Positions 958-57,564 of a DNA stretch of 64,000 nt are shown here, in pieces. Numbering within the stretch: position 1 is the stretch's first letter; each line of letters begins with the position of its first letter. The stretch comes from a bacterium (GTDB taxonomy: Bacteria > Sysuimicrobiota > Sysuimicrobiia > Sysuimicrobiales > Segetimicrobiaceae). A program made the translations under genes and the position numbers. The notes below the pieces were generated by a model. The model saw only the letters and a program-made list of their open reading frames with translations. It was not told the origin of the DNA and did no database searches. The DNA lies in contig DATEGA010000252.1 of assembly GCA_035280345.1 (NCBI GenBank), positions 5,836 to 69,835 on the forward strand. Reading direction: 5' to 3'.

Positions 958-1163
958 CGCTGTCTGCCTGATTCTGGGCCGCCGCACCCCGCGGACCGTC
1001 AAATGTCGTTGCGAGCGCCGGTTGGCGGCCCTAGCCTCTTTCGGGCGATGCCTTTGATGCCCCCCTAATGTCCGTTGGAGGGAAGGTATATGGGTCCCGG
1101 AAAGAGGACTGACTGAGGGCAACGGGCGTTTCTCCGGTTCGAACGCCCTGCTACGGACGTTCT
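958..1163. promoter_or_regulatory. 5' leader/promoter region of the glycan locus with a perfect 7-bp stem hairpin (GGGCGTT 1124-1130 / AACGCCC 1142-1148)
   Basis: 206-bp non-coding gap immediately upstream of the NusG-paralog gene. The inverted repeat was read directly from the sequence. Confidence 0.3.
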
Positions 1164-1673
1164 ATGGACACGGCCTGGTATACGGTGCAATCAAAACCGC
1201 ATAACGAAACGCGGGTCGTGCGCCACTTGGCCGGCCGGGACGTTCCGACGTTCCTGCCGTTCCTTGAGGTCGTCCAGCGTCGCACCGGCACATGCCGCAC
1301 GTCTCTCGAACCTCTGTTCCCCGGATACCTGTTTGTCAGGCTTGGGCCGGTGGACCACCAGCCCGAGACATGGAGCACGGTCCGATGGAGTCCGGGTGTC
1401 CGCAGCATCCTCGGCGCCGCCGGACAGCCGGTGCCGGTCCCGGAAGACGCGATCGAAGCCATTCGGGATCGCATGGGCACTCTCGGCTTTGTCCGGCCGG
1501 GCAGGCGGTTTGAACCCGGCGATCGCGTGCGTTTTCGAACGGGTCCGATGGTTGGACTCGAAGCGATTCTGGACCGCCAGGCGTCCAAGGCCGGCAGGGT
1601 GCATGTGCTGTTGTCGCTACTGACGGGTGGAGTTCGGATCGAGACCGACGAACTAGATCTTGAGTCGGCTTGA
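1164..1673 (+). CDS. NusG/RfaH/UpxY/LoaP-family specialised transcription antiterminator (NGN + KOW domains)
   Basis: The N-terminus MDTAWYTVQSKPHNETRVVRHL...PLFPGYLFVRL is the NGN-domain signature (WY.V...G.E, FPGY.FV). The C-terminal FEPGDRVRFRTGPMVGLEAIL is a KOW motif. It sits at the head of a polysaccharide locus, as UpxY/RfaH-type paralogs do. Confidence 0.8.
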   Translation: MDTAWYTVQSKPHNETRVVRHLAGRDVPTFLPFLEVVQRRTGTCRTSLEPLFPGYLFVRLGPVDHQPETWSTVRWSPGVRSILGAAGQPVPVPEDAIEAIRDRMGTLGFVRPGRRFEPGDRVRFRTGPMVGLEAILDRQASKAGRVHVLLSLLTGGVRIETDELDLESA

Positions 1674-1718
1674 GCTGCCGAAAACGAAGAACACGCGTGT
1701 GGCGACGGACGCGCTTGG

Positions 1719-2966
1719 TTGGGATTCAGGCGCAGTCAACGGCGGAGCCACAGGCGAGCGGCGGCCACCGACAGCCGGATACAAGGGAGTGACAGATTGG
1801 TGAACAAAACACAGCGGCGCGCCGGCGCACGGTCGCTCAGGGTGGGCGTGGCACTGTCCCTGATCGCGCTGCTGGTCGTGGTTTTCGCGATCCCGGGCAG
1901 CGACGCTTCAGCGGCGCCGAAGGAGTACGTCCTTGGGCCTGGCGACGCCGTTGATGTCGTCGTCTATGGGCAGGCTGATCTTTCCGAGATCGTTACCGTG
2001 AAGCCGGACGGCATGATCGCGCTGCCATTGGTTGGACAGGTGAAGGCGGCCGGCCGGACGACGGCACAGTTAGAACAAGACCTCGTCGCGGCGTATCGCA
2101 AGTACCTAAAGGCACCGACCGTTTCTGTGAAGGTCAACCAGTTCCGAACGAATCGGATCTACGTCCTCGGGCAGGTCTTCCACCCTGGTCAATACGAGCT
2201 CAAACCGAGCGCCGGCATCCTGGAGCTGTTGGCGGCCGCCGGCGGTCCCACCACGCGGGCCGACTTGGCCAAAGCGGTGTTGATTCGCGACAAAACCGAT
2301 ACGACACAACTTGACCTGGTCACCGCGATCAAGCAGAGCAAAGACCCCGCGGTCGCGCTGGAACCCGAGGATGTTGTCTACATCCCGGAAACGGACGCGC
2401 GCATCATCGTCCTTGGACAGGTGAACAAACCCGGCGCGTACGACCTGCTGGAGGGGCAGCGCGTCACCGATCTGATCGCGGGTGCCGGGGGGCCCACCGC
2501 CAAGGCCGCGCTGGCGCAGGCCTTCGTCGTCCGCGGTGAGCAGCAGATCCCCGTAGACCTGAAGAAGGCGCTCGCGGGTGATCCCGGCGCCGATATCGTG
2601 CTGCAGCCGCGCGACATGATGGTGGTGCCCGAATCACGCGAGCGTATCGCCGTGCTGGGCGCCGTGAACAAGCCGGGCCCGCAGGACTTCAAGCCGGACA
2701 TGAAGCTGGTGGATGCCATTGCCCTTGCAGGCGGCCAAACCAACAACGCGGATCTCCGCAAGGTGCAGATCATTCGAATCGAGAACGGGCAGGGAAAGAC
2801 GATAAACGTCGACTTCAACAAAGTGCTCCGGGCTCAGGATCCGTCGCAAAACGTTCAGTTGCAGAATGGGGATATTGTCTACGTGTCGCAAAAGGGGTTC
2901 ACGTTGGCTCTGCTCGGCGGGATCGTGAACATTTACTACCTGCTGCGGACCGCGGCGGGGTTCTAG
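1719..2966 (+). CDS. Wza-like outer-membrane polysaccharide export protein (Poly_export + SLBB repeats); true start probably around 1790-1800
   Basis: Signal-like segment LSLIALLVVVFAIPGSDASA, then YVLGPGDAVDVVVYG...DGMIALPLVGQVKAAGRT (Poly_export motif). This is followed by three repeated units of the form VLGQVNKPG / VLGAVNKPG (SLBB-like). Confidence 0.75.
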   Translation: MGFRRSQRRSHRRAAATDSRIQGSDRLVNKTQRRAGARSLRVGVALSLIALLVVVFAIPGSDASAAPKEYVLGPGDAVDVVVYGQADLSEIVTVKPDGMIALPLVGQVKAAGRTTAQLEQDLVAAYRKYLKAPTVSVKVNQFRTNRIYVLGQVFHPGQYELKPSAGILELLAAAGGPTTRADLAKAVLIRDKTDTTQLDLVTAIKQSKDPAVALEPEDVVYIPETDARIIVLGQVNKPGAYDLLEGQRVTDLIAGAGGPTAKAALAQAFVVRGEQQIPVDLKKALAGDPGADIVLQPRDMMVVPESRERIAVLGAVNKPGPQDFKPDMKLVDAIALAGGQTNNADLRKVQIIRIENGQGKTINVDFNKVLRAQDPSQNVQLQNGDIVYVSQKGFTLALLGGIVNIYYLLRTAAGF

Positions 2967-2990: not shown

Positions 2991-4607
2991 ATGGAAGGCC
3001 GGTCGGAGCTCCGTCAGTATTACGAGATTCTGCGACGGCACGTCACGATCATTGCGCTCGTCGTCGCGCTCGCAATCGGCGGTGTGGGTCTGCAGCTCGC
3101 CATCCAGGGGCGGCAGTATCAGGCGGACGTGAGCGTGCTCGTGACGCCTCAGGCCTTCAATGGGGGTCTCGACACGAACCCGAACTTCGCCGCATTTCAG
3201 ACGCAGTACCGCAATCTCGTGATGAACGATATTCTCTACCTCGCCAAGAGCAGCGAGGTGCTCAGGCGGGTGGGGCAGCGGGTTCCGCAAGTTAGTCCGG
3301 CTGCTCTGTACCGTGAGATCAAAGTCACGAACCTTCCCAACACCGACATCGTGGTCGTGAGCGCTCGGGATGGGGTGCGGGACCGCGCCGTCCTCATCGC
3401 CACGGCTACGACCCAGGAACTCGTAGCCTACTACGCGGAGTTGAACCAGGCCGCGGCGGCCGGCACGCGGCAGTTCATCGGGCAGCAGGTCGCCGTCACG
3501 AAGCAGAAGTTGGAAGCCGCGGAGGATAGTCTCCGGGCGTTCAAGACCCAGGCCAACATTGCGGGTCTCCCCGAGACGACCTCACGTATGATCCAGCGAT
3601 CCTTTGAGCTGCAGGCGATGTACAACGCCGCCATGTTAGACGTGCGGGCCGCACAGATGCGCGCCGGTTCCCTGCAGCAGCGGCTCCGATCGGAGAGCGG
3701 CGGTCAGCTTGCGTCGGTCGAGATCGGCACCAACCCCGTGGTCGCCCAGCTGCGCGACCGTCTTATGGCCGCGGAGGCCGACCTCGCGAGTTTGCGTCAA
3801 GTGTACACCGACCAGCATCCCAAAGTGCAGCAGGCGCTCGGTAACGTCGCCGACCTGCGGGCTCGGCTGCGCCAGGAAGCGGCCCAAGCCGCCAGCGATC
3901 GGTCGATCGGCGTGAGCCCGATTCGGGAACAGCTTGTAGCGCAGCTGCTGAACGCTCAAGTCGACGGGGAAGTGGCACAGGCGCGGGCGGAAGCCATCAC
4001 GCCCTTGCTGGGACAGCTTCAGTCGAGTATGAGCCAGCTGCCGACGAACGAATTGACGTTTGCACGGCTCCAGCGGGACGCAAAAGTGAACGAGGATCTG
4101 TATATGCGGCTGTCTGCGCTCTATCAGGACGCCAAGATTGCCGAGCAGAAGGCCGGCGTGTCCGGGCAGGCCGCGCTCGCCACCGTCGATCAGACTGACC
4201 CCAGCCCGGTGTCGTCGCAGTTCCCGCTCAAGGCGGGTCTCGGCGGATTGCTCGGACTGGTCATGGGCTGTGTGCTCGCGCTGCTGGTCGACAACTTGGA
4301 CAATCGCGTCCGGACGCCCGGCGACGCCGAGGGCACCTTCGGCGTTCCTGTCCTTGCGTCCGTTCCCACGATGAACCCTCAAAACCATCGTGCACTCATG
4401 GGTGAGTCAGGCGGTGTGGCGGGCACAGTGGGGATGATCTTGCCGATTGTCATGCCGTTCGTGCTGCCGTTCCTCTTCGTCATGCTTGGAGGGCTTGCCG
4501 TCGGGCTGCTGGTCAGTAAAGCCGGCCCGGTGGTCGGATCTGTCGCGGGACAGGCCGGGATCGCCGTCACCCAGATGCTGCACCACCTGACAGCACTTCT
4601 TGGTTGA
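2991..4607 (+). CDS. polysaccharide co-polymerase / chain-length determinant (Wzz/GumC/ExoP-like) with an unusual extra hydrophobic C-terminal tail
   Basis: RBS ggaggagggag upstream. N-terminal TM (IIALVVALAIGGVGL), a long periplasmic coiled-coil region, a second TM (LLGLVMGCVLALLV) and about 100 aa of extra G/V/L-rich hydrophobic tail. Confidence 0.7.
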   Translation: MEGRSELRQYYEILRRHVTIIALVVALAIGGVGLQLAIQGRQYQADVSVLVTPQAFNGGLDTNPNFAAFQTQYRNLVMNDILYLAKSSEVLRRVGQRVPQVSPAALYREIKVTNLPNTDIVVVSARDGVRDRAVLIATATTQELVAYYAELNQAAAAGTRQFIGQQVAVTKQKLEAAEDSLRAFKTQANIAGLPETTSRMIQRSFELQAMYNAAMLDVRAAQMRAGSLQQRLRSESGGQLASVEIGTNPVVAQLRDRLMAAEADLASLRQVYTDQHPKVQQALGNVADLRARLRQEAAQAASDRSIGVSPIREQLVAQLLNAQVDGEVAQARAEAITPLLGQLQSSMSQLPTNELTFARLQRDAKVNEDLYMRLSALYQDAKIAEQKAGVSGQAALATVDQTDPSPVSSQFPLKAGLGGLLGLVMGCVLALLVDNLDNRVRTPGDAEGTFGVPVLASVPTMNPQNHRALMGESGGVAGTVGMILPIVMPFVLPFLFVMLGGLAVGLLVSKAGPVVGSVAGQAGIAVTQMLHHLTALLG

Positions 4608-5431: not shown

Positions 5432-6499
5432 ATGCTGATTGTCCGTGCACCGGTGCGGATTAGCTTCGCGGGCGGCGGCACCGATTTGGAGAGTTACTAT
5501 CGGCCGTTTGGCGGACTGGTCGTCAGCGCCGCGATCGACAAGTATTTCTACGTCTTTGTGACCGTCAATAAAGGCGAAAGTATCCAGATCATGTCGTCCG
5601 ATTTCCGCACGTTTTACCGGCAGGATGCAGATCAGGAGATGTTGTGGGACGGTGACTTGGCGCTCCCTCGCGCCATCCTCAACTACTTCAACGTCCACGA
5701 GGGGCTCTCGATGTTCCTGGCGTCGCAGGTGCCGCCAGGCACCGGTCTCGGTTCTTCCAGCACCGTCGCGGTCGCCGTGATCAAGGCCCTCACGAGCCTG
5801 CAGGGTCTCGCGTTATCGAAGCAGGAGATCGCCGAGTTGGCCTGTTCGATCGAAATCGAGAAACTCGGCATGCCAATCGGCAAACAAGATCAGTATGCGG
5901 CGGCGTTTGGGGGCATCAACGGGATCGCCTTTGAACACGACGGTGTCTCGGTCCATCCTCTCAGGCTTTCGCCCGATGTCCTGGAGCGACTCGAGCGCAA
6001 TGTGCTCCTATTCTATACCGGCGTGGCCCGGGATGCCGCGAAGGTACTCACCGAACAAAATCAGGCAACGCTCAACCGTTCCGCCGGGGTGATCGAGTCC
6101 TTGCACGCGATCAAGGGAATGGCGATGGAGGTCGGTCAGTGCTTTGAGCGGGGGGACCTCCGAAAGCTCGGTGAACTGCTGCACACATCGTGGGAGTACA
6201 AGAAAAAGCTCTCGGCCGGGATCACCAATGCGTGGATCGACGAGTGCTACGAGACGGCGCGCTGTCACGGGGCAATCGGCGGCAAGATAACCGGGGCCGG
6301 AGGTGGCGGCTTCCTCATGCTCTACTGCGAAGAGCGAGGAGCGCCCGCGGTGACCGAGGCTCTGGGCCGGCTCGGCCTCAAGCGAATGGACTTCTCCGTG
6401 GACTTCGATGGCGCGAAGATCCTGGTGAACAACGGCATTCCGTTTCAAATGCTGGGGCAGGGAAGGCGCGCCGGCGAGGTCGCCGTTGTGAACGGGTGA
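5432..6499 (+). CDS. GHMP-family sugar kinase, HddA-like (D-glycero-D-manno-heptose 7-phosphate kinase-like)
   Basis: MLIVRAPVRISFAGGGTDL N-terminus and the PPGTGLGSSSTVAVAV GHMP ATP-binding motif. RBS ggagacggagagg upstream. Confidence 0.6.
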   Translation: MLIVRAPVRISFAGGGTDLESYYRPFGGLVVSAAIDKYFYVFVTVNKGESIQIMSSDFRTFYRQDADQEMLWDGDLALPRAILNYFNVHEGLSMFLASQVPPGTGLGSSSTVAVAVIKALTSLQGLALSKQEIAELACSIEIEKLGMPIGKQDQYAAAFGGINGIAFEHDGVSVHPLRLSPDVLERLERNVLLFYTGVARDAAKVLTEQNQATLNRSAGVIESLHAIKGMAMEVGQCFERGDLRKLGELLHTSWEYKKKLSAGITNAWIDECYETARCHGAIGGKITGAGGGGFLMLYCEERGAPAVTEALGRLGLKRMDFSVDFDGAKILVNNGIPFQMLGQGRRAGEVAVVNG

Positions 6500-7875
6500 T
6501 GCCCAGGGCCGATCGGCACGTCATGATCTTGGGGTTGATCGGGGTCGACGTGCTGGCGCTGACGATCGCCGGGGCTCTGACCTCAAAGCTTCTGCCGTTC
6601 GATATCCTGGCAGCGGGCCGGGGAGCGTCCCAGTTTCTGCTGGTGGCGGCGCTTCCGGTGGCCATCGGTTTGTTTGCAGCCAATCGCCTCTATGTCCTCG
6701 ACGAGCTTCTGGAGGGGCCCATCGAGTACGGGCGGATCGTCTATGCCTGTACGCTCACGACGTTCGGGCTGAGCGTAATCGGGTTCTGGTGGCGTGATGT
6801 GGATGCGCTCGCCCCGTCGCGCCGGCTCGTGACGGCTCTCTGGTTTCTCTCGATTCTGGCCGCGGTGACGGGGCGGTTCATCGTGCGCCGCGTCGTGCGG
6901 GCGCTGCGCCGCCGAGGGTTGCTGACGACGCGCACGCTGATCGTCGGCCTCGGCGCCCAGGGGTTGTCGTTGTGCCGGCACTTTCGCGAGCTCCGGCACG
7001 CGGGGGTTGAGGTCGTCGGGTTCATCGACGACTTCCTCCCGGCAGGGACGCCCGTGGTCGACGGACTCAAGGTACTTGGCCCTCCGAGCGCTCTGCCGGC
7101 GGTCTTGCGTGAGACCGGCGCCGGCGACGTGATCGTGGTGCCGACGGCTATGGCCTGGGAGAGTTTCCACGACCTCATTCGTGATACCGCCACGTTGAAT
7201 GGGCACACCGTGCGCCTCACGCCGGGATTCCGCGATATCCTGGCCGCGAACATAAAAGTGCATCATTTCGGATCGATGCCGTTGCTGACGATCGAGCGGG
7301 CGCGTATTACAGGGCTCGAGGCCGTCCTGAAACGGCTCGTGGACTACACGCTTGCCGCCGTGCTGCTGCTATTCAGCCTGCCGATCCTTGCTACCGTGGC
7401 GATAGTGCTTCGCGCCAAGGGAGTGCGGGTATTTTCTCGCGTCGCCACGATTGGACGTGGCGGGCGAACCTTTCAGGCCGTGGTGTTCAACGCATCGGAC
7501 CCCGACAATGGCTTCCAGCGCGCAGCGGTGCGGCTCGGGCTCGACAAGGTCGTACAGCTCTGGAACGTGCTGTGCGGCCGGATGAGCATCGTCGGTCCTC
7601 GCCCCGTCCCTGTTCATCGGCGCCGTGAATATGAGCGCTGGGTGCCGAACCTGTTGACCGTCAAGCCGGGTGTCACCGGACCGTGGGCGCTGACCGGCGT
7701 CCGTCTCCCTTTGGACGACGAGATGCAGGCGACCCTGTTCTACATCCGCAACTACACCATTTGGCTGGATCTCGAAATTGTCGTTCGATCTATCCTCCGG
7801 GTGCTCCGCGGTCGCGCGGTCCCCGACCACACGAGTGAGCCGGTCCGCCGTGACGCCGTCACAGTACATCAGTAG
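6499..7875 (+). CDS. undecaprenyl-phosphate sugar phosphotransferase, WbaP/WcaJ-like (large polytopic priming PGT with CoA-binding-like domain)
   Basis: TGATG overlap with the upstream gene. N-terminal TM helices, a Rossmann-like LIVGLGAQG segment, and a C-terminal bacterial sugar-transferase motif IVGPRPVPVHRRREYERWVPNLLTVKPGVTGPWAL. Confidence 0.75.
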   Translation: MPRADRHVMILGLIGVDVLALTIAGALTSKLLPFDILAAGRGASQFLLVAALPVAIGLFAANRLYVLDELLEGPIEYGRIVYACTLTTFGLSVIGFWWRDVDALAPSRRLVTALWFLSILAAVTGRFIVRRVVRALRRRGLLTTRTLIVGLGAQGLSLCRHFRELRHAGVEVVGFIDDFLPAGTPVVDGLKVLGPPSALPAVLRETGAGDVIVVPTAMAWESFHDLIRDTATLNGHTVRLTPGFRDILAANIKVHHFGSMPLLTIERARITGLEAVLKRLVDYTLAAVLLLFSLPILATVAIVLRAKGVRVFSRVATIGRGGRTFQAVVFNASDPDNGFQRAAVRLGLDKVVQLWNVLCGRMSIVGPRPVPVHRRREYERWVPNLLTVKPGVTGPWALTGVRLPLDDEMQATLFYIRNYTIWLDLEIVVRSILRVLRGRAVPDHTSEPVRRDAVTVHQ

Positions 7876-8464
7876 CCTGCGCGAGGCGCTCGCCAAGGTG
7901 TCGGTTTCGGACCTTCGCGAGATCGAAGACGTGCTCTTCGACGCGTGGCGCCACGGGCGCACGATCTTCATCGCCGGGAACGGTGGCAGCTCGTCAACCG
8001 CCTCGCATTGGACCAACGACCTCAACAAGGGAGCGATTACCGCGGGGGGACGTCGATTTCGCGCGATGGCGCTCACCGACAACGTGCCGCTGATTACCGC
8101 GTGGGGCAATGACACCGCGTACGAGCGGATCTTCGTCGAGCAAATGACGAACTTCATCCAGCCTCACGATGTGTTCGTCGCCATCAGCGGCAGCGGAAAC
8201 TCGCCCAATATCCTTGCGGCCGTGCAATGCGCGCGGAGCGCGGGCGCCGTCACGGTCGGCCTGACCGGCCGCGACGGTGGCCAACTGCGGGTCCTCGCCG
8301 ACCACGCAGTGGTGGTCCCGGCACACTACATGGAGATCATCGAAGACGTCCATTTGGCGCTCTCGCACCTGCTCTGCACGGCGCTGCGGGCGAGGATTGC
8401 CGCACCGATGCCCGCGGGCGAGGCGATCCCCGTCACGCAAACGATGTCCCGACCGGAGGCGTGA
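7835..8464 (+). CDS. SIS-domain phosphoheptose isomerase, GmhA-like (GTG start at 7835 or 7850)
   Basis: TIFIAGNGGSSSTASHWTNDL ... VFVAISGSGNSPNIL ... VGLTGRDGG match the GmhA SIS motifs. Confidence 0.65.
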   Translation: MSRSAVTPSQYISSLREALAKVSVSDLREIEDVLFDAWRHGRTIFIAGNGGSSSTASHWTNDLNKGAITAGGRRFRAMALTDNVPLITAWGNDTAYERIFVEQMTNFIQPHDVFVAISGSGNSPNILAAVQCARSAGAVTVGLTGRDGGQLRVLADHAVVVPAHYMEIIEDVHLALSHLLCTALRARIAAPMPAGEAIPVTQTMSRPEA

Positions 8465-8466
8465 TC

Positions 8467-9225: not shown

Positions 9226-9241
9226 GCGTTGCGTACCGGGC

Positions 9242-10141: not shown

Positions 10142-10159
10142 GGAGGGCCGAAGGGTCCT

Positions 10160-14760: not shown

Positions 14761-14797
14761 CTCTTAAGGCGGCTAGAAAGCGGAGGACCGAATAGCG

Positions 14798-47262: not shown

Positions 47263-47379
47263 GAGGGGAAGGTGATCCCATTAGCGCGGAGATGACTCCT
47301 CCCGCCGTTCGATCCGTGTGGCGAATCTTTCGAGCGGCGTCCATCCATCCGCGCGGCCACGTTCGCCCGCCATGAGCGT

Positions 47380-49064: not shown

Positions 49065-50681
49065 TTGCGGAGGCGAGTCGGTGCGCGTTACACTAGCATC
49101 AAGATCTGCGGGTTTCACACTGGCGGTGCCGGCGCAGTGTTCTCTTCTCGCAATCGCGGCAACAACCGTTCTGTTTCCGTCGCCGGTTCCATCCTCGTTG
49201 TCTTGATTGCCCTTGTCGCCTTGCGTTCCCCAGCAGGTCTTTCGCGGCCGGCGCCAACTCACACCATACCTGCGGACGCGTTCCTGGCGCAATTCTACGA
49301 CGACATCACGTTGACGCGGTTGGTTCATACCGAGATCGATCCATACATCTACTTTCCGGATCCTGGGAATTTCATGCCCTGGGGCGCGAATTCCACCCGC
49401 ACTGCCCGTGAGTACTCCGCCAGATGGGAGGGCAATTGGAACTTTCCCACCACGGGTACGTACACGTTTGGCGTTTCCACGAGTAAGGGCATGCGTGTGT
49501 GGATCGACCGGCGTCTTGTTATCGATGAATGGCGCGATCAGCAGGCAACATACAGCGTCGACGTTCACGTCAACGCCGGAAGACACTACATCAAAGTCGA
49601 ATACTACTTCGAGGGCGGCGGTCACGCATATGCGGAGGCCGGATGGGGACTTAAGATCCCGCCTGCTCCTGCAAGAGGTCCGAATCCGGCCGGTACCGCC
49701 GCAACCAAGGCTGCGATTATCGCGTATCTCAACTCTCTACCCCACAGGTCGTCCCAGAAATTGATATCCGGACAACTCGATGACCTCGATTTACCGGGTC
49801 AGGTGACGACGATTTTTCGCAGGACTGGGAAATGGGTCGGCATCGAAAATTTGACGCTCGAGGGAATCCGCAGCTGGTGGAATCTGAGCACGGTGCAACA
49901 ATATGCCACCGATTACTGGGACAGGGGCGGCCTCGTGATGCTCACCGATATGGCTCCCAATCCTGTCCAGGTGCTCGCAGGGAAATGCGGCAGCTCCAAT
50001 CGCTGGGATTGTGGCGGCGGCAGTCTCTCTCCTTACTCTTGGAACGATCTCGTAACGCCGGGCACCGCGATAAATCGTCAGTGGCTCACCGATCTAGACC
50101 GATTTGTCCCTATGCTCACGCAGTTTAAGCGGCATGGCATCGTCGTCTTCTATAGCCTGATGCCGGAGATGACCAGCGGGTGCTGGCAATGGTACAACTG
50201 CAGAGTCTCCGGTGCGCAATTCGTGAATCTGTGGCGGCAAACCTATCAGTATTTGGTCGGTGTCAAAGGCCTCGACAACATCATCTGGGTATGGTCGCCC
50301 AACATGGGTAACTATGATGTGTCGTTCTACCCCGGATCGAATTATGTGGATGTGATGGCCAGCGACGAGTACGCTCGTCCGGCGACGCGCTACATACCGA
50401 ACGATCCCGTCAACTATTCCGCGGAAGCGGCCTTAGGAAAGCCGTATGCGATTGCGAGCAGCGGTCCAGACACCGGCAGCGGTGCCGCGCCGTGCGGGAC
50501 GTACGACTACGCGAAGTGGCTTGCCGGGATGAAATCAAACTTCCCGGAAGCCACGATGTGGCTGCCGTGGGGCGGATGTTACGGCATGCAGGCACAACAA
50601 GGTGTGTCCACAGTTCTCAACGATGCTTGGGTTGTAAACAGGGACGCATTACCCGATTTTACCGGCACAGGTAGGCGGTAA
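49065..50681 (+). CDS. secreted PA14-domain + clan GH-A glycoside hydrolase (GH26 mannanase-like)
   Basis: Signal-like ILVVLIALVALRSPAG. PA14-like YSARWEGNWNFPTTGTYTFGVSTSKGMRVWIDRRLVIDEW...YIKVEYYF. GH26-like FYSLMPEMTSGCWQWY (resembles RP-HEMNG-WFWWG) and IWVWSPN. Confidence 0.5.
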   Translation: MRRRVGARYTSIKICGFHTGGAGAVFSSRNRGNNRSVSVAGSILVVLIALVALRSPAGLSRPAPTHTIPADAFLAQFYDDITLTRLVHTEIDPYIYFPDPGNFMPWGANSTRTAREYSARWEGNWNFPTTGTYTFGVSTSKGMRVWIDRRLVIDEWRDQQATYSVDVHVNAGRHYIKVEYYFEGGGHAYAEAGWGLKIPPAPARGPNPAGTAATKAAIIAYLNSLPHRSSQKLISGQLDDLDLPGQVTTIFRRTGKWVGIENLTLEGIRSWWNLSTVQQYATDYWDRGGLVMLTDMAPNPVQVLAGKCGSSNRWDCGGGSLSPYSWNDLVTPGTAINRQWLTDLDRFVPMLTQFKRHGIVVFYSLMPEMTSGCWQWYNCRVSGAQFVNLWRQTYQYLVGVKGLDNIIWVWSPNMGNYDVSFYPGSNYVDVMASDEYARPATRYIPNDPVNYSAEAALGKPYAIASSGPDTGSGAAPCGTYDYAKWLAGMKSNFPEATMWLPWGGCYGMQAQQGVSTVLNDAWVVNRDALPDFTGTGRR

Positions 50682-51038
50682 ACGGGAGACGGTCTTGCCG
50701 TCCAGCCGAAAGATCCATTCCATCCCTCTTTTGGTGACAGGGCGTGAAGATGTCCCCGGGCAAGCATGTTCGACGATGGACCAAGCGCCGCGTTGGGATA
50801 CTGTGGAGGGGGGCACCGCAGGCGGTTCGGGCGCCTCGCGGGAACGTACCGTCCGGCGGGTGGGCACCCTCGTCGTGATGTTGCGGTCCGTAGATGTGCC
50901 GGGCTACGGTGTCTACCGAGCGTATGAAATGGCGCGTTTGGAACACGGCGTGGCGCAGACTCTTATTAACGACGGCGTGGCGCGGAAGTACCGGGAAGGA
51001 CTGAAGCTGGGTGAAAATGGTAAGGCATAGCGAACCGA

Positions 51039-51340
51039 CATGACCCGGTTGAAAGGGCCTACAACAGACGCATAGTCGCGAGATATCCGCGGGGCGCAGG
51101 TACCATCTCCAAGGGCGCCGGCCTGGGCAAGTCGCTTTTCCTCTGGCTCCTCGTGCTGCTGATCGCAGCGTCGGCCTTCTGGCCTCGAGGGAGTGGGAGT
51201 TTGTACGATTGGGATGAGGCCATCTATGCCCAGGTGGCGAAGGCGATGAACGCCACGGGGGATTGGCTCCGGTCCCAATACGAATACCAAGTGTGGATCG
51301 ACAAACCTCCGCTGCTGATGTGGTCCGCGGCACGCTTGCC
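51039..51340 (+). pseudogene. truncated remnant of an ArnT/PMT_2-like GT-C gene (first TM helix and DE loop only)
   Basis: In-frame translation MTRLREAYNRR...LFLWLLVLLIAASAFWP...LYDWDEAIYAQVAKAMNATGDWL...KPPLLMW reproduces the ArnT N-terminal signature. It then decays into non-hydrophobic sequence and stops. No continuation is found in any frame. Confidence 0.5.
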
Positions 51341-51482
51341 GACAACAGTCAAACGTCTCGTGGTCGTCGGCAACGAACGGGACGGCGGAAATTCAACCCA
51401 GTGCACGTGCCCAGCAGGTCGTCGATCGACGGGCATGCTTACAGTGAAACCGGCAGATCGCCGACGAGAGGAGGCTCGACAA

Positions 51483-52399
51483 TGAAGGAAGAATCGGGCC
51501 GCCTCGGCGCTAAGGCTTACGTGACGGTGTTGAGCACCGATAATTATTTGGAGGGCGTTCTTGTCCTGAACGAGTCGTTGCGCTTGTGCAAATCAAAATA
51601 TGGACTTTATGTTGTGATGGGTAGCAAGGTGCGCAAGTCCGTTCGCGATACGCTGGCCAAGGCAGGCGTGCGAATGATCAACTCGCAGCCTCTCAATATA
51701 CCGGAGCAAATCCGGCTCGCAAACCTAAGTAGTGACCACCATCGTCATTGGGCTGGGGTATTCGAGAAGCTGATTGTCTTTTCGCTGTGTCAATTTCGGA
51801 AGATCGTGTATCTTGACAGTGATCTCCTTGTCATCAAGAACATAGATGAGTTGTTTGACAAGCCCCACATGTCCGCAGTGATAGCCGACATCTATCCCGG
51901 CAATCACAAGTGCGTCTACCTGAACGCAGGCCTCATGGTGATTGAACCCGAGTCGGACCTCACGGACCGGCTCATCGAGCTTCTTCCGAACGCATTTGAA
52001 TCCGAGAAACAGTGGAGGACGGCCGCCGGGCGTCCGGTTAGTATAGGCGTCCAAAGCGTTATTAACATGTTCTGGAGCGAGTGGATTTCAAGAAACGCGT
52101 TGCATCTTGACCACAAGTACAATGTCATGGCCGATCAGGTCGACTACTATCGGAGAGAGCTCGACTGCAAGTGGCGCGGTCCCGACGGTATACACGTCCT
52201 CCACTTTATTGGAGAGGTGAAGCCGTGGATGAGGACCGGGACAGATTTCTTGCGCTCCGCTGGTGGGCTCGTTCTCGATCGCCGGATCGGGGAACTGGCT
52301 GCCCTTATGGCGTATAAGGCGGTGTTGAGAAGCGCACAGCTACGGATCAGATATGTCCATCAGAGGGAGCACAGAGGCTTGAACGTTTTTGAGATCTAG
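51483..52399 (+). CDS. GT8-family glycosyltransferase (glycogenin/LgtC-like), low-GC gene
   Basis: YVTVLSTDNYLEGVLVLNESL (GT8 N-terminal motif), DxD at YLDSDLLV, and HF.G..KPW near the C-terminus. GC about 50% versus about 70% for the flanks. Confidence 0.65.
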
Positions 52400-54063
52400 T
52401 GCCCACCCTCACGCCGGTGTCCAGGTTTCACCGCTCGCATCGTGATCAGGACTTCGTAGTCGGGATCACGGTAGTCCAGGTCCCTCCCGCCGAGTTCCTC
52501 GCTTGCCATTCCGTGGAGGAACGCGACCGCCGCAAGGACATTGCCACAGGCGTGAACGTCGATACTTGCCGGCGGAAACACCTCCTCGAGTAGCCGCCGG
52601 GCCGACCAGGTCGTGAAGCTCCAGTAGTGGCCCCACCGATCCGCGTCCCACCGGCTGATCTGGCTGATTCCTCCAACCGTCCCGAGCAGCACTCCCCCGG
52701 GCTTCAAGATACGGTAAACGGTCCGGAGCGCCGCGCGCGTGTCGTAGATGAATTGCAACGTTTGGGTCAGGATAATGCAGTCGTACGCGTCGGCGGGGAT
52801 GTCGTCGCCGCGGGTCAAGTCCGCCACGATTGTTGCCTTTGGATTATCTGTGCGGATATCGAGTACGTCAGCTACCGCAACGTGGGTTCGTCCGAACTTT
52901 CGCGTGTAGGAGTCGCTGCCGACCTCCAGAACACGCCCGTGGATGTCGGCTTCCCGAGCGGCCAGAAAGCGGTCGATATAGTACCGGTCAATCGGCAGGC
53001 CCCGATCCTTGCCGAAAGCGCGGCTCAGCGGCGTCACCCGCCGCAGGCTTCCGAGACGGACCCAGCCCGCCGGCGGAGTATATTCCTGTCTCTTCCGCCG
53101 GGCCGCCAACCAGTGGTAGGCCGGGGCAGGCAGCGTCCATTGCGCGATGCGTCTTGTCAACCGCCGCATCTCGCCCGGGAGATGCCGTTTGAGCGCGGGG
53201 AACGCGGCGAAGGGATCGGCGAGAACCCCACGCCAAAAGCGGCCGCTTCTCCAGGGCCGCCCGTCGGTGTCCCAGCCCGCTCTCAGTACGTCCAACATCG
53301 CCTGAATCCGGCGGTCCAGTCGCGTTCCCCGTGCCTCAGGATGGCGATCGAGATACCCGCGGACCACCTGCTGCGTCCCTTCCCAGACGGCCGCCATGTT
53401 GCTGGAATTTGAGGCGGCATGCCGGCGATAATATAATGCGACCTCGTCTTCGCCACGCACCCTTCCATGTTCCAGCGCACGTAGCGTAAAGTCCCAGTCC
53501 TGGCAGACCGCAATGGCTGGGTTCCAGTCGCCCGTAGCTTCGACGACCTTCCGCGGAAACAGCAGCGCCTGGATTCTTACGTCGAACCCACCCAGCAAAC
53601 ATGCCATCGTCGCCGACCCGCTGAGCCGGCAGCTCCGTTTGTGCTGCGGACGCAAATCCGAATCGCAGAACATCGTGGCGCCATACGCGATCACGTCGTC
53701 GGTGTTCATAAGGCGCAACAAGCGCGCCGTGCTGTCCTGGTCGAGTACGTCGTCACCGTCGATGAAACGGAGCCGGCTCCCCGTCGACGCGGCAATGCCC
53801 GCATTGCGAGCTCGAGAAAGGCCCCCGTGTTCGATGCGGACGATCCGCAACCGCTCGTCCGTGACTGATCTCAACAGATCCGCCACGGGCTCGGGAGAGC
53901 CATCGTCTACTACGACGAGCTCAACGCGGCAACCGCGTTGCCCGAGGGCGCTTTCGACCGCCTGCCTGAGCCACTCCGGCCGCGGCCGCCAGACGCACAT
54001 GATGAGGCTCACGAGCGAATCCTGACGGCTCTTCGTCTCCAGGACCTTCCGTTGGGCCATCAT
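52396..54063 (-). CDS. bifunctional GT2 glycosyltransferase (N-terminal) - SAM-dependent methyltransferase (C-terminal) fusion
   Basis: N-terminal LVSLIMCVWRPRPEWLRQAVESALGQ...VVVDDGS...FIDGDDVL. C-terminal RVLEVGSDSYTRKFG...YDCIILTQTLQFIYD...LKPGGVLLGTV. Confidence 0.65.
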   Translation of the reverse strand: MMAQRKVLETKSRQDSLVSLIMCVWRPRPEWLRQAVESALGQRGCRVELVVVDDGSPEPVADLLRSVTDERLRIVRIEHGGLSRARNAGIAASTGSRLRFIDGDDVLDQDSTARLLRLMNTDDVIAYGATMFCDSDLRPQHKRSCRLSGSATMACLLGGFDVRIQALLFPRKVVEATGDWNPAIAVCQDWDFTLRALEHGRVRGEDEVALYYRRHAASNSSNMAAVWEGTQQVVRGYLDRHPEARGTRLDRRIQAMLDVLRAGWDTDGRPWRSGRFWRGVLADPFAAFPALKRHLPGEMRRLTRRIAQWTLPAPAYHWLAARRKRQEYTPPAGWVRLGSLRRVTPLSRAFGKDRGLPIDRYYIDRFLAAREADIHGRVLEVGSDSYTRKFGRTHVAVADVLDIRTDNPKATIVADLTRGDDIPADAYDCIILTQTLQFIYDTRAALRTVYRILKPGGVLLGTVGGISQISRWDADRWGHYWSFTTWSARRLLEEVFPPASIDVHACGNVLAAVAFLHGMASEELGGRDLDYRDPDYEVLITMRAVKPGHRREGGH

Positions 54064-54094
54064 CGGAGCCTTCTCGCGCGGCGACTTCTTTATA

Positions 54095-55051
54095 TTAGTT
54101 TCGCGTCAGGAAGTCCCGCAGCGAAACCGCGTACCGCTCCGCGCGTCGTCGTACACGATGAAGGAACGGTTGCCGGTACGGCGATAGCGCCCGTCGAAGC
54201 GCCGCTCGGATCTCGGGGTCGTCGACGCCCTGGTCCGACAAGTAACGTTCAAGCCAGGTCAAGAAGAACAGCCGCGCGGAGTGTTGTTGCCCCGCTTTCT
54301 TCACCCGGGCAACACAGGAGTCCGCGTGCAGCCGGTACCGGTCCCAGCACTCGCCGGCGACGAAGACGGATTCCCGAAGATAGACTTTGGCTAAGAACGC
54401 TCGATCCTCGTAGAGTTGGTAGACGCCTCGAAACGACTCTTCGAATCCCCCGACCCGCTCGATCATGCCCCGACGGCACAACAGGTCCGAAGGGCAGGGG
54501 GTAATCGCCGCGCCCAGCGGCGCGGTGAGTTTCAGGAGGGCGGGCGGTCTCATCAGCACTTCGGTTTGGACGCCAAGCTCCGGTACGTCATCCCGGTGGA
54601 AGTTCTGGGGCTCTCCCGACCAACTGCGCCAGTATTGCGTCGCGCCGTACACCATCGCGGCCTCGCGGTGACGGCCGAGTATCGCCACTTGCTGTGTCAA
54701 CTTCTGCGGCAGCCAGACGTCGTCGGCGTCCAGCAGTGCAATATAGGCCCCCCGGGCGTGACGCACGGCCAGATTGCGGGAGGCGCAGACGCCTCGGTTC
54801 TGCCGGCCGGCGTGCGTAAGGTAGCGGACCCTGCCGGGGTCACGTTCCGCGAATCGTTGCGCCATCTCCGGCGAGGCGTCCGTCGAGCCGTCGTCGACCA
54901 GAAGCAACTCCCAGGTGTCATAGGTTTGGCCGCGTACGCTTTCGACGGCTTCTGCGAGGAACGCTTCGGCATTGAAGAACGGCACGATGACGGAGACAAC
55001 CGGCCGGCTGCCGGCTATTCCACGTTCTGTCTCAGGGCCTACACCCAGCAT
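54095..55051 (-). CDS. GT2 glycosyltransferase
   Basis: VVSVIVPFFNAEAFLAEAVESVRGQTYDTWELLLVDDGSTD...LLDADDVWLPQKL. Confidence 0.7.
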   Translation of the reverse strand: MLGVGPETERGIAGSRPVVSVIVPFFNAEAFLAEAVESVRGQTYDTWELLLVDDGSTDASPEMAQRFAERDPGRVRYLTHAGRQNRGVCASRNLAVRHARGAYIALLDADDVWLPQKLTQQVAILGRHREAAMVYGATQYWRSWSGEPQNFHRDDVPELGVQTEVLMRPPALLKLTAPLGAAITPCPSDLLCRRGMIERVGGFEESFRGVYQLYEDRAFLAKVYLRESVFVAGECWDRYRLHADSCVARVKKAGQQHSARLFFLTWLERYLSDQGVDDPEIRAALRRALSPYRQPFLHRVRRRAERYAVSLRDFLTRN

Positions 55052-55132: not shown

Positions 55133-56485
55133 TCACGCGCTTGTGTCGCTGCGACTTCCGGATTCTCCTCCGAGGACCGCCCCGAGCCGGCGGTTGAGTG
55201 CATTGAGGATTGCTTTGGGTACCGCTTGCACGACGTCGGTCGCCCAACAGATGCCGACAAGCCGCTGCTTCTCTCCGGTCGCCGCGGACAGCACGACAAC
55301 GGCCAGCTTCTCCGTCGCGGTCGGAACGATGCTCAGTTCTTCAACGACGTAGGCAGTCGTCTCGCCGGTTGTGCGCCGCAACGCTTCCAACGTCGCCTGG
55401 GCGGCAAGAAAGGACAGTCCATGGCCGTGGAGCGGCCCGACCGCTTCTGCAGAGCCTTCGCGCGAGCCATAGCGGAGCCGGACCACCGCCTTGCCGCCGG
55501 CTTGGTCGGTTTGCGCGGCGACCTCGACAATTTGGACTCGGCCGCCGGTATGCGGCGGAGTGATCGGCCGGCCGCGGGCGCCGATGAATCGGTGAGTCGC
55601 GTCGAGGGTACTGCGATCCGACCCCCCTGCGCCGGCGCGCTTGGCCTCCTTGAGTAATGTTGAGGCGCGGCTCGCAAGTGTCAAAAGATCATCCACCGTC
55701 GCAGCGACGTGTGTCCGCTCCCGGTTCTCGGCTCGACGGCCGCCGGCCAATCCGATGCTCGCGGTGACGATCAGGGTACTGTCGGCAACGGCCACGGGCA
55801 AGGCGATCGCGGTCTGAAGGTGGTCCCTCAGCCGTCCGGCGGCCGCCGCATCTCGCGTGGTCGCCACGACAAACTCATCACCGCCGTACCGGCTCAAGAG
55901 GTCGGTCCGGTTATCGACCAGAGAAGCTGCCAGCCGCGCGACCGCTCGGAGAAGGTCGTCTCCCGTGACGTGCCCCAACAACTTATTGACGGCGCCGAAG
56001 TTGTCGAGGTCGATGAACAGCATGCTGATTTCGTGGCCATGGTCTAACGCCGCCATCGCCCACGCACGAAGCGCGGTCGAGGCCGGAAGGCCGGTGAGGG
56101 GATCGTTCTGCTGACCCTGCTTGCGCAATACCGCCGTCGCCGCGACATAGCCGACGGCCGTGCCCTCGCGGACCACCGGCAGGGCGTCGGTCTGCTGCTG
56201 CATCATCGCCGCGTACGCCTGAACGAGCGGCAGGTCCGGCGTCACCGGTTTGATTCCCGGTGTCATCACATCTGCGACCGGGCGGTACGCCGGCGCGGCG
56301 AGAAGTTGCATCGCAGTAATCAGCCCGACGACGCGGCCGCTCTCCATGACCGGCAGGACGTCCACGCTGTGGCCTGTCATGATCTTTGCCGCCGTCGCAA
56401 CCGTGTCCCGCGGCGTCACGTAGTCGGGCGACGGCGTCATCGCGTCCGCGACGGTAAACTCCACGGTGCCGGCGTCTTCGGTCAT
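55133..56485 (-). CDS. diguanylate cyclase: tandem CBS domains + GGDEF domain + uncharacterised C-terminal domain
   Basis: CBS-like TPRDTVATAAKIMTGHSVDVLPVM. GGDEF ISMLFIDLDNFGAVNKLLGHVTGDDLL...RYGGDEFVV with an intact GGDEF. A C-terminal region of about 140 aa is unknown. Confidence 0.75.
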   Translation of the reverse strand: MTEDAGTVEFTVADAMTPSPDYVTPRDTVATAAKIMTGHSVDVLPVMESGRVVGLITAMQLLAAPAYRPVADVMTPGIKPVTPDLPLVQAYAAMMQQQTDALPVVREGTAVGYVAATAVLRKQGQQNDPLTGLPASTALRAWAMAALDHGHEISMLFIDLDNFGAVNKLLGHVTGDDLLRAVARLAASLVDNRTDLLSRYGGDEFVVATTRDAAAAGRLRDHLQTAIALPVAVADSTLIVTASIGLAGGRRAENRERTHVAATVDDLLTLASRASTLLKEAKRAGAGGSDRSTLDATHRFIGARGRPITPPHTGGRVQIVEVAAQTDQAGGKAVVRLRYGSREGSAEAVGPLHGHGLSFLAAQATLEALRRTTGETTAYVVEELSIVPTATEKLAVVVLSAATGEKQRLVGICWATDVVQAVPKAILNALNRRLGAVLGGESGSRSDTSA

Positions 56486-56491
56486 CCGGCC

Positions 56492-57211
56492 TCAGCCGGC
56501 GAAGAGCTCAGTGATTGCAAGGCCGAACCCTCCCGCAGTCGCGACGCCGATTCCCACACGCCGAAACACCGGCGAGAGCATATTCGCGGTGTGCGCCGCA
56601 CTGGCGAGGAAGGCGTCATGCGCCTGCGACGGCCGCTCCGCAAACGCCACATTTTCGCCGACGGCCGTGCCGGCGGCCAGGACCCCGCTGAGCCGTTCGG
56701 CAAAGGATTCGCCGGTCGGAGAGTCGTGGCCGACGAACCCTCGCAACGCCATGCTGCGGGAGTGCGCCCGTGCGATATTGCGCAGCGCCGCGTCCGGCTT
56801 CAACAGCGCGATGCCGCGGGACAGGCGGACTGAGTTGAGCAGGGATAGCAGGATGTTTTCCGAGGCCGGTGAGAATGCGCTGTTCGGCGCACGACCGGCC
56901 AGCCAGACAAAGCTCTGGTTCCGAGGGAGCGTCGAGTCGTCCGCGGGCCACCGCGACTGCCCACTCGCCGCGCCGGTTGCAGTGCTTGCGACGGCAATGA
57001 CCAAACCGCGGCAGCTCCCGAGGATCTGCCTTCGGGTTGTTTTTTGACGGAAGGGCCGTGACACCGGCGCTGCTCCTTCAACGCGACTTGGTCCATCGTC
57101 GTGCCCGCCTAGTGGCCTGCGATTTGGGGAAGACTTAGACCTCCAACTCCGGCACTTCAATGCTGGCGACCTATGTGTAGATGAACACTTAGCATCCCTA
57201 TTTCGGATCAT
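56492..57211 (-). CDS. secreted CAP-domain (SCP/PR-1/YkwD-like) protein
   Basis: N-terminal signal-like region, then LNSVRLSRGIALLKPDAALRNIARAHSRSMALRGFVGHDSP...GENVAF (CAP motifs). Confidence 0.55.
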   Translation of the reverse strand: MIRNRDAKCSSTHRSPALKCRSWRSKSSPNRRPLGGHDDGPSRVEGAAPVSRPFRQKTTRRQILGSCRGLVIAVASTATGAASGQSRWPADDSTLPRNQSFVWLAGRAPNSAFSPASENILLSLLNSVRLSRGIALLKPDAALRNIARAHSRSMALRGFVGHDSPTGESFAERLSGVLAAGTAVGENVAFAERPSQAHDAFLASAAHTANMLSPVFRRVGIGVATAGGFGLAITELFAG

Positions 57212-57564
57212 TCGTCTGAGGGATCTAGACCGTACAGGTGTTCGGTAAATTGTCCCGGTAGGTGACGGTAGTCCAGCGTGGAGCGTGGACTGCGGCCGGC
57301 ACCGCTGCGCCGGGGGCAGGGGTTATTTGAGTGGTACCAATTCATGCCCGCTTTTGATGCGGTGCGTCAGGCAGGCAATGTCTCGGCCGGGGCTGTCGCC
57401 ATCTCGGTCACCCAAAGGGATACCGCGTGGGCCATGACGAAGTGAGGTGCGCCGGGCCGCACGGCGAGTCTTCGCCCGGGGATGGCGTCCGGCCCGCACC
57501 ATACCCTCAGTGTTGATTGGGAGCCCGGGTCCTATCACACGATGTGCATGAAACGCGCGGATAG
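57212..57564. promoter_or_regulatory. divergent intergenic region between the CAP/DGC/GT2 minus operon and the REC-LuxR regulator gene
   Basis: 353-bp non-coding gap containing a locally AT-richer stretch (about 57150-57250). Confidence 0.25.

Follow-up and report, generated by a model that had tools for sequence, protein, structure and literature searches.

A conserved surface-glycan locus joining OPX/PCP and Wzm/Wzt export genes in a Sysuimicrobiota bacterium, read tentatively as one ABC-transporter-dependent pathway

The subject of this analysis is a glycan-assembly locus of about 56 kb, contained in a 64,000-nucleotide stretch of DNA (contig DATEGA010000252.1, assembly GCA_035280345.1; hereafter the window) from a bacterium of the Sysuimicrobiota. 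The locus carries, side by side, genes for an outer-membrane polysaccharide export protein (OPX), a type 2 polysaccharide co-polymerase (PCP-2) and a homolog of the bacterial tyrosine kinases (BY-kinases), genes for a Wzm/Wzt ABC exporter, and a gene for a membrane protein of the Wzy/WaaL family. In textbook systems, PCP-2 and OPX are paired with Wzx and Wzy, and Wzm/Wzt with WaaL and the Lpt machinery. Our best reading is that the whole constitutes one lineage-typical surface-glycan locus of a diderm Terrabacteria lineage. Specifically, we propose, with a probability of roughly 0.45, that it encodes a single ABC-transporter-dependent pathway, expressed as one antiterminated operon, whose capped polymer would be transferred by a WaaL-like protein and/or exported through PCP and OPX.

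Results

Family assignments were based on Pfam and NCBIfam profile scans of ~52 open reading frames (ORFs) in the window, which confirmed, in its place, each element named in a preliminary description of this DNA, including the co-occurrence in one locus, in the absence of Wzx, of OPX/PCP, Wzm/Wzt and a Wzy_C protein. The gene identities given below, like the motif states, folds and conserved synteny, are direct observations. Glycan-related genes were found to fill nearly all of the DNA from 1.16 to ~55 kb, and for ~45 such genes within 54 kb chance is far too weak an explanation. The earlier statement that essentially every gene is glycan-related holds for these ~45 genes, but not for a secreted 613-residue protein, a CAP-domain protein, a CBS-GGDEF protein and a probable non-gene at 50659-51345. 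Its estimate of about 19 glycosyltransferases (GTs) was borne out by the profile scans together with evidence of GT-C fold, the 19 comprising nine GT4, five GT2, one WecG/TagA, one GT8 and three GT-C enzymes; they are accompanied by eight methyltransferase (MT) domains, a DegT aminotransferase, a GFO oxidoreductase, a deacetylase and a GH26/PA14 hydrolase. A MOP-family Wzx was indeed not recognizable, as the scanned ORFs of the 56-kb locus contained no match to Polysacc_synt, MOP, Wzx or MatE, and every polytopic membrane ORF of the window was assigned to some other family. The description of the locus as one contiguous unit agrees with the gene order: from OPX to the GT4 gene designated GT4_f (1800-23574), 21 co-directional genes follow each other, many of them overlapping by 4 nt and none separated by more than 124 nt; the GmhA, MT, Wzm and Wzt genes are spaced by 2-18 nt only, and the same linkage recurs in relatives.

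The export genes at the head of the locus were examined individually. The OPX protein passed TIGR03027 (196 bits against a cutoff of 180) and is 55-81% identical in relatives. Pfam recognized Poly_export and SLBB domains in it and neither Wza_C nor GfcC; its C-terminus (2895-2966) forms a 22-residue hydrophobic tail, GFTLALLGGIVNIYYLLRTAAGF, which Pfam did not call Wza_C. The classes of OPX have been described (PMC9603273), and by its sequence the present protein may span the outer membrane or need a β-barrel partner; no candidate porin was found within the window. The PCP matched TIGR03007 (E 1e-44) and has terminal hydrophobic segments, and it scored only 21 bits against the BexC/CtrB/KpsE family (cutoff 437). 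Together, the GNVR/Wzz and TIGR03007 matches of the one protein and the Poly_export, SLBB and TIGR03027 matches of the other constitute the PCP-2 and OPX of the Wzx/Wzy pathway.

The third member of the set, previously described as a BY-kinase homolog, is such a homolog but has lost the Walker-A lysine: its Walker A motif reads APRHGSST, as against APGAGKST in CapB, and there are only two C-terminal tyrosines, so that both the lysine and the C-terminal tyrosine cluster of an active BY-kinase are missing. The lysine-less Walker A and the scarcity of C-terminal tyrosines were also found in four related loci (L088, L089, L090 and L091, the L numbers denoting loci; L091 belongs to an Armatimonadota metagenome-assembled genome, MAG). 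Because the lysine is absent and this state is conserved in the four loci, the protein is probably a conserved pseudokinase that serves as a scaffold, like EcpK and HfsB. Pairs of a BY-pseudokinase with a PCP-2, namely EcpK-EpsV and HfsB-HfsA, were described recently (PMC12004946), and the genes studied here appear to be of the same make, i.e., a stand-alone BY-kinase-like protein without catalytic residues beside a kinase-less PCP-2. As for the XrtA/PEP-CTERM system, no exosortase was found in the window, and the PCP and kinase models scored under their cutoffs, though OPX passes TIGR03027.

The Wzm/Wzt exporter proposed at 9242-11470 was substantiated by matches to ABC2_membrane, ABC_tran and Wzt_C, the last covering residues 275-390 of Wzt with 32.8 bits (cutoff 30.4). 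The top PDB match of Wzt was the Wzt of Aquifex aeolicus (E 2e-60), and Wzm is 73-74% identical in L084 and L090. The transporter parts of a capped ABC pathway, i.e., Wzm, the nucleotide-binding domain of Wzt and its carbohydrate-binding domain (CBD), are all present. A CBD-bearing Wzt exports capped, finished chains (PMC9445017). Candidates for the chain terminator are the eight MT domains and the GT2-MT fusion, besides a CmoA-like enzyme and a weak APH-like domain; a PDB search with the APH-like protein detected no similarity to WbdD. An ORF at 9229-10122 was rejected as Wzm, being a wrong-frame shadow that overlaps the real gene. A scan of GTDB genomes with Wzt returned mainly Anaerolineae, at 46-51% identity, with a shared context of Wzm/Wzt only. 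The top GTDB match to both Wzt (51%) and Wzm (56%) was L003, in a Gemmatimonadales MAG; its locus has a NusG paralog, a SIS isomerase, a GHMP kinase and a deacetylase, and no OPX/PCP within 10 kb. In L090/L103, L083, L101 and L176, a sulfotransferase and/or a bifunctional ATP-sulfurylase/APS-kinase adjoins Wzm/Wzt; these genes suggest sulfated polymers, or a sulfate cap, in the sister lineages.

Two different priming phosphoglycosyltransferases (PGTs) had been proposed, and two Bac_transf proteins are present, but priming by the large one is doubtful, since it is degenerate throughout its family. When aligned with WbaP and PglC, the small PGT (14092-14760) keeps KFRTM, DPRVT and SLDELPQL; the Asp-Glu dyad and the KFRxM/DPR motifs are thus present here and missing in the protein at 6499-7875, and judging by these motifs the small PGT is the only canonical one of the locus. 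The large homolog aligns to the solved WbaP in two pieces, with ~25-45 residues, including the KFRxM and DPR regions, missing, and it has LDKVVQ where WbaP and the small PGT have LDELPQ; the deletion and the D[KR] change are common to all sampled members of its family. Relatives of the large homolog were found in a metagenome search with an alignment as the query, whereas the same search with the single sequence found nothing. The family comprises several hundred proteins from Armatimonadota-like and Chloroflexi genomes, and the gene is always wedged, overlapping, between the HddA-like and GmhA-like genes.

The gene for a short-chain dehydrogenase/reductase (SDR), 69% identical in relatives, always adjoins the PGT gene and the gene for the Wzy/WaaL-family membrane protein. 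The latter (15985-17481) was confirmed as such: it matches WaaL both by profile and by fold, and the Arg and His motifs of the two can be aligned. It also matched weakly the repeat-unit polymerase family TIGR04370 (23 bits, cutoff 40), and a PDB sequence search with it gave no match.

The relatives' loci, obtained by context look-ups and tblastn, were inspected over 10 kb on each side of the anchor genes. A head block, in the order of NusG paralog, leader, OPX, PCP, pseudokinase, HddA-like kinase, degenerate PGT and GmhA-like isomerase, was found in at least 12 lineages, with proteins 41-81% identical to those of the window; since this identity is kept in ABC-type loci, the sequences indicate purifying selection on the head proteins. 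Wzm/Wzt follows the head in the window, L088, L090/L103, L115 and L118. The locus is thus conserved as a unit in relatives, the linkage of the head with Wzm/Wzt recurring in five or six lineages, which argues against loci that lie side by side by accident; a synteny break, as would mark an adjacent and independent capsule locus, was not observed in the relatives. What varies is the assembly/export cassette plugged in behind the constant head. In L091 and L099 (Armatimonadota MAGs GCA_031459855.1 and GCA_031459555.1), a Polysacc_synt (Wzx) gene is located ~7.5 kb past the head and there is no Wzm/Wzt; five loci have no exporter visible within 10 kb of the head. The distant L176 has Wzm/Wzt next to a large, canonical PGT and a protein in which PCP and P-loop parts are fused.

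A second block, consisting of small PGT, SDR, Wzy_C, WecG and two GT4 genes, is syntenic in L083, L084/85 and L086/87 with 41-74% identity (WecG, GT4_c and GT4_d specifically in L083, L084 and L086), and where the flank reaches, it directly continues the Wzm/Wzt region, namely in two relative lineages and the window. The searched set contained 33 Wzy_C homologs; as none of them came from a Wzx-type genome, the family tracks ABC-type loci. The GT4_g, APH-like and GT2-MT genes, which lie at 35-54 kb in the window, are found directly upstream of OPX in L089/L113, and head genes and GT genes therefore intermix; the GT4/APH-like pair is conserved at this position in both loci, and the fusion is 75% identical in L089.

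The gene that opens the locus encodes a specialised NusG paralog, kept at the locus head in at least 11 related loci. Its top NCBIfam match, RfaH (TIGR01955), reached 99.8 bits, under the cutoff of 144.5, and it fell below every equivalog cutoff. The intergenic region between NusG paralog and OPX contains a 12-mer, GGCGGAGCYRTR, in 13/13 loci examined, all of which have these two genes adjacent, i.e., the window, L088, L090/L103, L091, L099, L100, L104, L109, L110, L115, L123 and L126. It is single-copy in all of them but L123, where a degenerate second copy occurs, and sits ~70-90 nt past the stop codon of the NusG paralog in all but one; the sequence flanking it is not conserved among the 13 loci. 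In the whole window there is just one exact copy of the 11-nt core, ACGGCGGAGCC (1739-1749). We take the 12-mer to be comparable to the ops element of E. coli, GGCGGTAGnnTG. An Rfam search gave no match to JUMPstart or any other family for the leader with the 12-mer, nor any for the whole window. The 12-mer and the NusG paralog, as read from their sequences, fit processive antitermination of the long gene array. A conserved non-coding block upstream of the paralog, CTCTTTCG(A/G)G...GGAGGGAAGGTA, is common only to the three closest lineages, those of the window, L088 and L090. In the relatives, genes for LuxR-type response regulators are located upstream.

The large PGT homolog has its nearest named relatives in Armatimonadota MAGs (54-58% identity), followed by Chloroflexi (at most 45%), and Armatimonadetes and the neighboring Eremiobacterota are reported to carry lipopolysaccharide (LPS) and BamA genes (PMC5629042, PMC6664022). 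Considering that the head synteny is also shared with an Armatimonadota MAG, the organism is probably a diderm from the Armatimonadota/Eremiobacterota neighborhood. The GC content is 0.54-0.59 at 14092-28122 and 49065-52399, as against 0.60-0.70 elsewhere in the window, where the housekeeping genes of the 3' end reach 0.65-0.70. It is ~0.63 in the head and falls to 0.54-0.59 from the small PGT onward; in relatives, the block from small PGT to GT4 likewise has 0.58-0.60, compared with 0.63-0.64 in the head.

Features of the locus, with window coordinates, strand and supporting matches
Feature	Position	Strand	Evidence or remark
Conserved non-coding block, candidate promoter or regulator site	1034-1100	+	~65 nt upstream of NusG paralog
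Specialised NusG paralog (RfaH/UpxY/LoaP-like)	1164-1673	+	Pfam NusG E 8e-20
ops-like 12-mer GGCGGAGCCACA	1741-1752	+	leader between NusG paralog and OPX
OPX (Wza-like)	1719/1800-2966	+	Poly_export + 3 SLBB
PCP-2-type co-polymerase without kinase domain	2991-4607	+	GNVR E 9e-8, Wzz E 5e-5
Stand-alone BY-kinase-like protein, probable pseudokinase	4600/4609-5328	+	CapB/Wzc/Etk homolog, E 1e-25
HddA-like heptose-7-phosphate kinase (GHMP)	5432-6499	+	NF049969 E 3e-61, below cutoff
Large WbaP-like PGT homolog, degenerate catalytic domain	6499-7875	+	CoA_binding_3 + weak Bac_transf
GmhA-like sedoheptulose-7-P isomerase	7850-8464	+	SIS_2; TIGR00441 E 2e-33
CmoA-like SAM-dependent enzyme, candidate cap/modification enzyme	8467-9225	+	CmoA 161 bits, cutoff 193
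Wzm (ABC-2 permease)	9242-10141 (frame of 9194/9242)	+	ABC2_membrane E 1e-18
Wzt (nucleotide-binding domain + C-terminal CBD)	10160-11470	+	ABC_tran E 5e-20 + Wzt_C
Two GT4	11451-14095	+	Pfam; 59-61% identical in L083, L084
Small canonical PGT, candidate priming enzyme	14092-14760	+	Bac_transf E 2e-57
SDR epimerase/dehydratase	14798-15988	+	Pfam Epimerase
WaaL-fold Wzy_C protein, candidate ligase	15985-17481	+	Wzy_C; WaaL-type fold and motif set
WecG/TagA-family GT, then four GT4 (putative adaptor and chain GTs)	17505-23574	+	Pfam
FkbM-type MT	23636-24511	-	Pfam Methyltransf_21
Secreted 613-residue protein	24981-26822	-	two Ig-like repeats, Thr-rich linkers, C-terminal domain
Sugar-modification block: MT, DegT aminotransferase, GFO oxidoreductase, GT2, three MTs	27127-34658	+	Pfam
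GT4 and 558-residue APH-like protein, candidate terminator kinase	34807-37657	+	Pfam APH E 3e-4, below cutoff
GT2, two GT4, polysaccharide deacetylase	37557-42207	+	Pfam
Two GT-C: PMT_2 type, then 579-residue protein	42204-45499	+	PMT_2; fold
MT, ArnC-like GT2 with C-terminal membrane region, further GT-C (putative periplasmic decoration set)	45540-48891	-	Pfam
Secreted GH26 glycoside hydrolase with PA14 domain	49065-50681	+	Pfam
GT8 (+), GT2-MT fusion (-), GT2 (-)	51263-55051	mixed	Pfam
CBS-GGDEF protein and CAP-domain protein, locus edge	55133-57211	-	Pfam

The head also contains two genes of heptose metabolism. The HddA-like kinase is 69-79% identical across relatives, and in L089-L091, L099 and L100 an NTP_transferase gene directly follows GmhA. 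L101 has a full heptose set plus a transaldolase beside its Wzy_C gene. The best-conserved protein of the entire locus is the CmoA-like one, which is 86-87% identical in L084, L085 and L088. CmoA itself is the carboxy-SAM synthase of tRNA modification, and the CmoA-like gene is placed directly before Wzm; by its sequence and place, the enzyme may make an unusual modification, perhaps a carboxymethyl group, or a polymer cap.

Among the genes downstream of the array, the secreted 613-residue protein gave no Pfam or PDB match. Its homologs, with 46-51% identity in L084 and L086, occur in L084/L085 and, in two copies, in L086/L087; going by its predicted layout, it may be an enzyme that processes the polymer, or else a glycoprotein that accepts it. 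The sugar-modification block gave PseC-like and UDP-GlcNAc 3-dehydrogenase-like NCBIfam matches. The 579-residue membrane protein (43760-45499) gave no Pfam match, even when its homologs were scanned, and no PDB sequence match; its AlphaFold2 model (pLDDT 87.9), however, was matched by Foldseek to STT3, AftA, AglB and ArnT (E 3e-7 to 3e-5), which marks it in the model as a periplasmic GT-C glycosyltransferase. On this fold, its candidacy as the missing flippase or polymerase was rejected. The ArnC-like GT2 that is encoded nearby is a weak match (41.8 bits). An ORF of 228 residues on the minus strand (50659-51345) was rejected as a gene, since it is Arg/Pro-rich and has neither homologs nor matches; without it, a non-coding gap of ~580 nt (50682-51262) precedes the low-GC GT8 gene. 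At the far edge (55133-58851), the CBS-GGDEF protein, the CAP-domain protein and a LuxR-type helix-turn-helix response regulator flank the locus; CAP and LuxR-type regulators flank the head also in L090 and L088.

Discussion

The proposed single pathway would proceed as follows. The NusG paralog would be recruited at the ops-like 12-mer and keep RNA polymerase elongating through the packed array of more than 20 kb. Of the enzymes produced, the small canonical PGT (14092-14760) would prime undecaprenyl phosphate, the WecG/TagA enzyme and the conserved GT4s would make an adaptor, and further GT4 and GT2 enzymes would extend a heptose-containing chain in the cytoplasm. Growth would be halted by a cap at the non-reducing end, for which the methyltransferases, the GT2-MT fusion, the APH-like protein and the CmoA-like enzyme are candidates; the CBD of Wzt would read this cap, and Wzm/Wzt would export the complete polymer. 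Once in the periplasm, the polymer may be decorated by the deacetylase and by three GT-C enzymes, which ArnC-like GT2s would supply, whereupon the WaaL-fold protein would move it from undecaprenyl pyrophosphate (Und-PP) to lipid A-core or some other anchor as its final acceptor. Lastly, PCP-2, scaffolded by the pseudokinase, and OPX would take the polymer across the outer membrane. From the observed genes we infer each of these biochemical steps, what the acceptor is, and that PCP/OPX handle an ABC-exported polymer.

Several points weigh against this proposal. A polymer ligated to lipid A-core travels by Lpt and needs no OPX; because of this, it is from linkage that we infer a role of OPX/PCP for an ABC-exported polymer. 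The same head is paired with Wzx in the two Armatimonadota MAGs (L091 and L099), and so may work for a Wzx/Wzy polymer whose genes are elsewhere in the genome. The fold of the Wzy_C protein has no power to separate ligase, polymerase and O-oligosaccharyltransferase, since WaaL is the sole solved member of the family. The 558-residue APH-like protein matched no PDB entry, WbdD included, and its assignment as a terminator is weak. HddC (NTP_transferase) and GmhB (HAD phosphatase) are absent from the window, and scans of the window for promoters and terminators returned results no different from those of shuffled sequence.

The main alternative is the idea that the locus makes two products under one regulon, in which Wzm/Wzt, the small PGT and the WaaL-like protein would build an ordinary, ABC-dependent LPS O-antigen, while the head would export another capsule or exopolysaccharide (EPS), with its Wzx and Wzy encoded elsewhere, or be a retained generic export frame. 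The occurrence of Polysacc_synt behind the same head in L091 and L099 and the several loci with no exporter visible within 10 kb of it are consistent with this idea, as is the established knowledge that WaaL-type ligation feeds Lpt and not OPX; the GC drop from the small PGT onward, seen in relatives too, is consistent with a separately acquired cassette. Nonetheless, the array is unbroken between the head and Wzm/Wzt, with gaps of 2-18 nt, their linkage is found in five or six lineages, the heptose genes are inside the head, and GT4_g, APH and GT2-MT adjoin OPX in L089; moreover, the 56 kb contain no Wzx, and no separate Wzy either if the single Wzy_C protein is a ligase. On balance, we regard two products as somewhat unlikely. 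A bolder form of the single pathway, to which we assign a still lower likelihood, is a hybrid fourth route, in which a capped Und-PP polymer would leave through the CBD-bearing Wzm/Wzt and be handed to a PCP-2/OPX conduit, with the WaaL-fold transferase releasing or re-anchoring it; the conduit would be held by the pseudokinase and the dead WbaP-like scaffold, and could be plugged into Wzx-type or ABC-type assembly within the clade.

Two further readings turn on the Wzy_C protein, and both appear improbable. According to one, S-layer loci being the model, it would be an O-oligosaccharyltransferase of PglL/WsaB type that glycosylates secreted or S-layer proteins with the ABC-exported glycan, as in Gram-positive Terrabacteria. 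In its favor, Wzm/Wzt reportedly occur in S-layer glycan loci along with methyl caps and a transferase of the Wzy_C family, most of the closest relatives of Wzm/Wzt among GTDB genomes belong to the Anaerolineae, and one gene within the locus encodes a conserved secreted protein that has Thr-rich linkers. Such linkers, however, are typical of secreted glycan-degrading enzymes too, no S-layer gene was identified, OPX/PCP would be left unexplained, and Armatimonadetes have LPS genes (PMC5629042). The other is a Wzy pathway independent of Wzx, where Wzm/Wzt would export Und-PP blocks that Wzy_C polymerises under PCP-2 and OPX secretes. That PCP-2 and OPX normally partner Wzy (PMC12004946), that the SDR-linked Wzy_C gene sits directly after the priming-PGT unit, that Wzm/Wzt and Wzx alternate behind one head, and that TIGR04370 is matched, if weakly (23 bits, cutoff 40), would all accord with it. 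It is difficult to reconcile, however, with the export of capped, finished chains by a CBD-bearing Wzt (PMC9445017), with the ligase-like profile and fold of Wzy_C and its aligned Arg/His motifs, and with the count of 0/33 homologs from Wzx-type genomes, by which the family tracks ABC-type loci.

The occurrence of either Wzx or Wzm/Wzt behind one head suggests that outer-membrane export modules are interchangeable between assembly modes, and the relatives offer natural pairs for testing how the PCP/OPX conduit recognises its inner-membrane partner. The dead WbaP-like PGT would be a second conserved pseudo-enzyme scaffold beside the BY pseudokinases. The locus also takes ops-like control of long glycan operons by a NusG paralog into a Terrabacteria lineage and gives a first view of the envelope glycans of a barely cultured phylum, although the practical impact is limited, as the organism is uncultured.

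Comparison with known systems

The locus was finally compared with the known systems of surface-glycan assembly. It shares with the capped ABC-dependent O-antigens of E. coli O9a, Klebsiella and Aquifex aeolicus the Wzm and CBD-bearing Wzt (PMC9445017, PMC3482155), the predicted cytoplasmic assembly on Und-PP, many MTs and a GT-MT fusion as candidate terminators, and a protein of WaaL fold. It differs from them in that a PGT of PglC/WbaP type, not WecA, would prime, that the ligase-like gene is inside the locus, that no WbdD similarity is detectable, and that OPX, PCP-2 and pseudokinase are co-operonic, while classical O-antigen loci are without them. OPX, a kinase-less PCP-2 and a stand-alone BY pseudokinase without catalytic residues are instead familiar from Wzx/Wzy export, as in the Wza-Wzc systems of E. 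coli groups 1 and 4, EpsV-EcpK of M. xanthus and HfsA-HfsB-HfsD of C. crescentus (PMC12004946). Unlike those systems, the present locus has no Wzx, its sole Wzy_C protein is ligase-like, and the partner exporter is Wzm/Wzt. Groups 1 and 4 also provide a precedent in that a single polymer is ligated to LPS there and is exported as capsule as well.

In the group 2/3 capsules (KpsMT-KpsE-KpsD), a PCP and an OPX act with an ABC transporter, and in Burkholderia pseudomallei and Campylobacter jejuni, whose capsules contain heptose, the locus includes GmhA and a HddA-type kinase, as is the case here. The marker KpsS/KpsC (Capsule_synth), however, was not matched by any ORF of the window, the PCP is not KpsE-like, Pfam recognized no GfcC in OPX, Wzt has a CBD, and a polyprenyl PGT is present. 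The preliminary description had seen no match to a textbook Wzy-, ABC- or synthase-dependent locus. The locus departs from the Wzx/Wzy pathway in having neither Wzx nor an active kinase, and from group 2/3 capsules in having neither KpsS/C nor a PCP of KpsE type; its transporter has the features of the capped ABC pathway. The three GT-C enzymes and ArnC-like GT2s beside an ABC-dependent polymer resemble periplasmic GT-C glycosylation, such as Gtr, ArnC/ArnT and the three-component GT136 system (PMC11127046), but no separate GtrA or MATE flippase was recognised in the window. The NusG paralog at the locus head and its conserved leader 12-mer resemble the RfaH/ops, UpxY and LoaP systems, from which they differ by the sub-cutoff score of the paralog, the lack of an Rfam JUMPstart match and the Terrabacteria lineage. 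Perhaps the nearest parallel to the mixture itself comes from cyanobacterial surveys, which found genomes that mix Wza/Wzc-type and Wzm/Wzt-type genes outside the standard schemes (PMC4594306); the EPS sets concerned, e.g., Synechocystis wzc near wzm/wzt, are also without KpsS/C, but most of their genes lie scattered, and a conserved single operon built like the present one is not known from cyanobacteria. Overall, each part of the locus is already known, and the mix is unusual but not unprecedented; what is new here is not a category, but that these genes are kept together in one apparent operon, that the exporter can be exchanged behind a constant head, and that two pseudo-enzymes occur as a pair.

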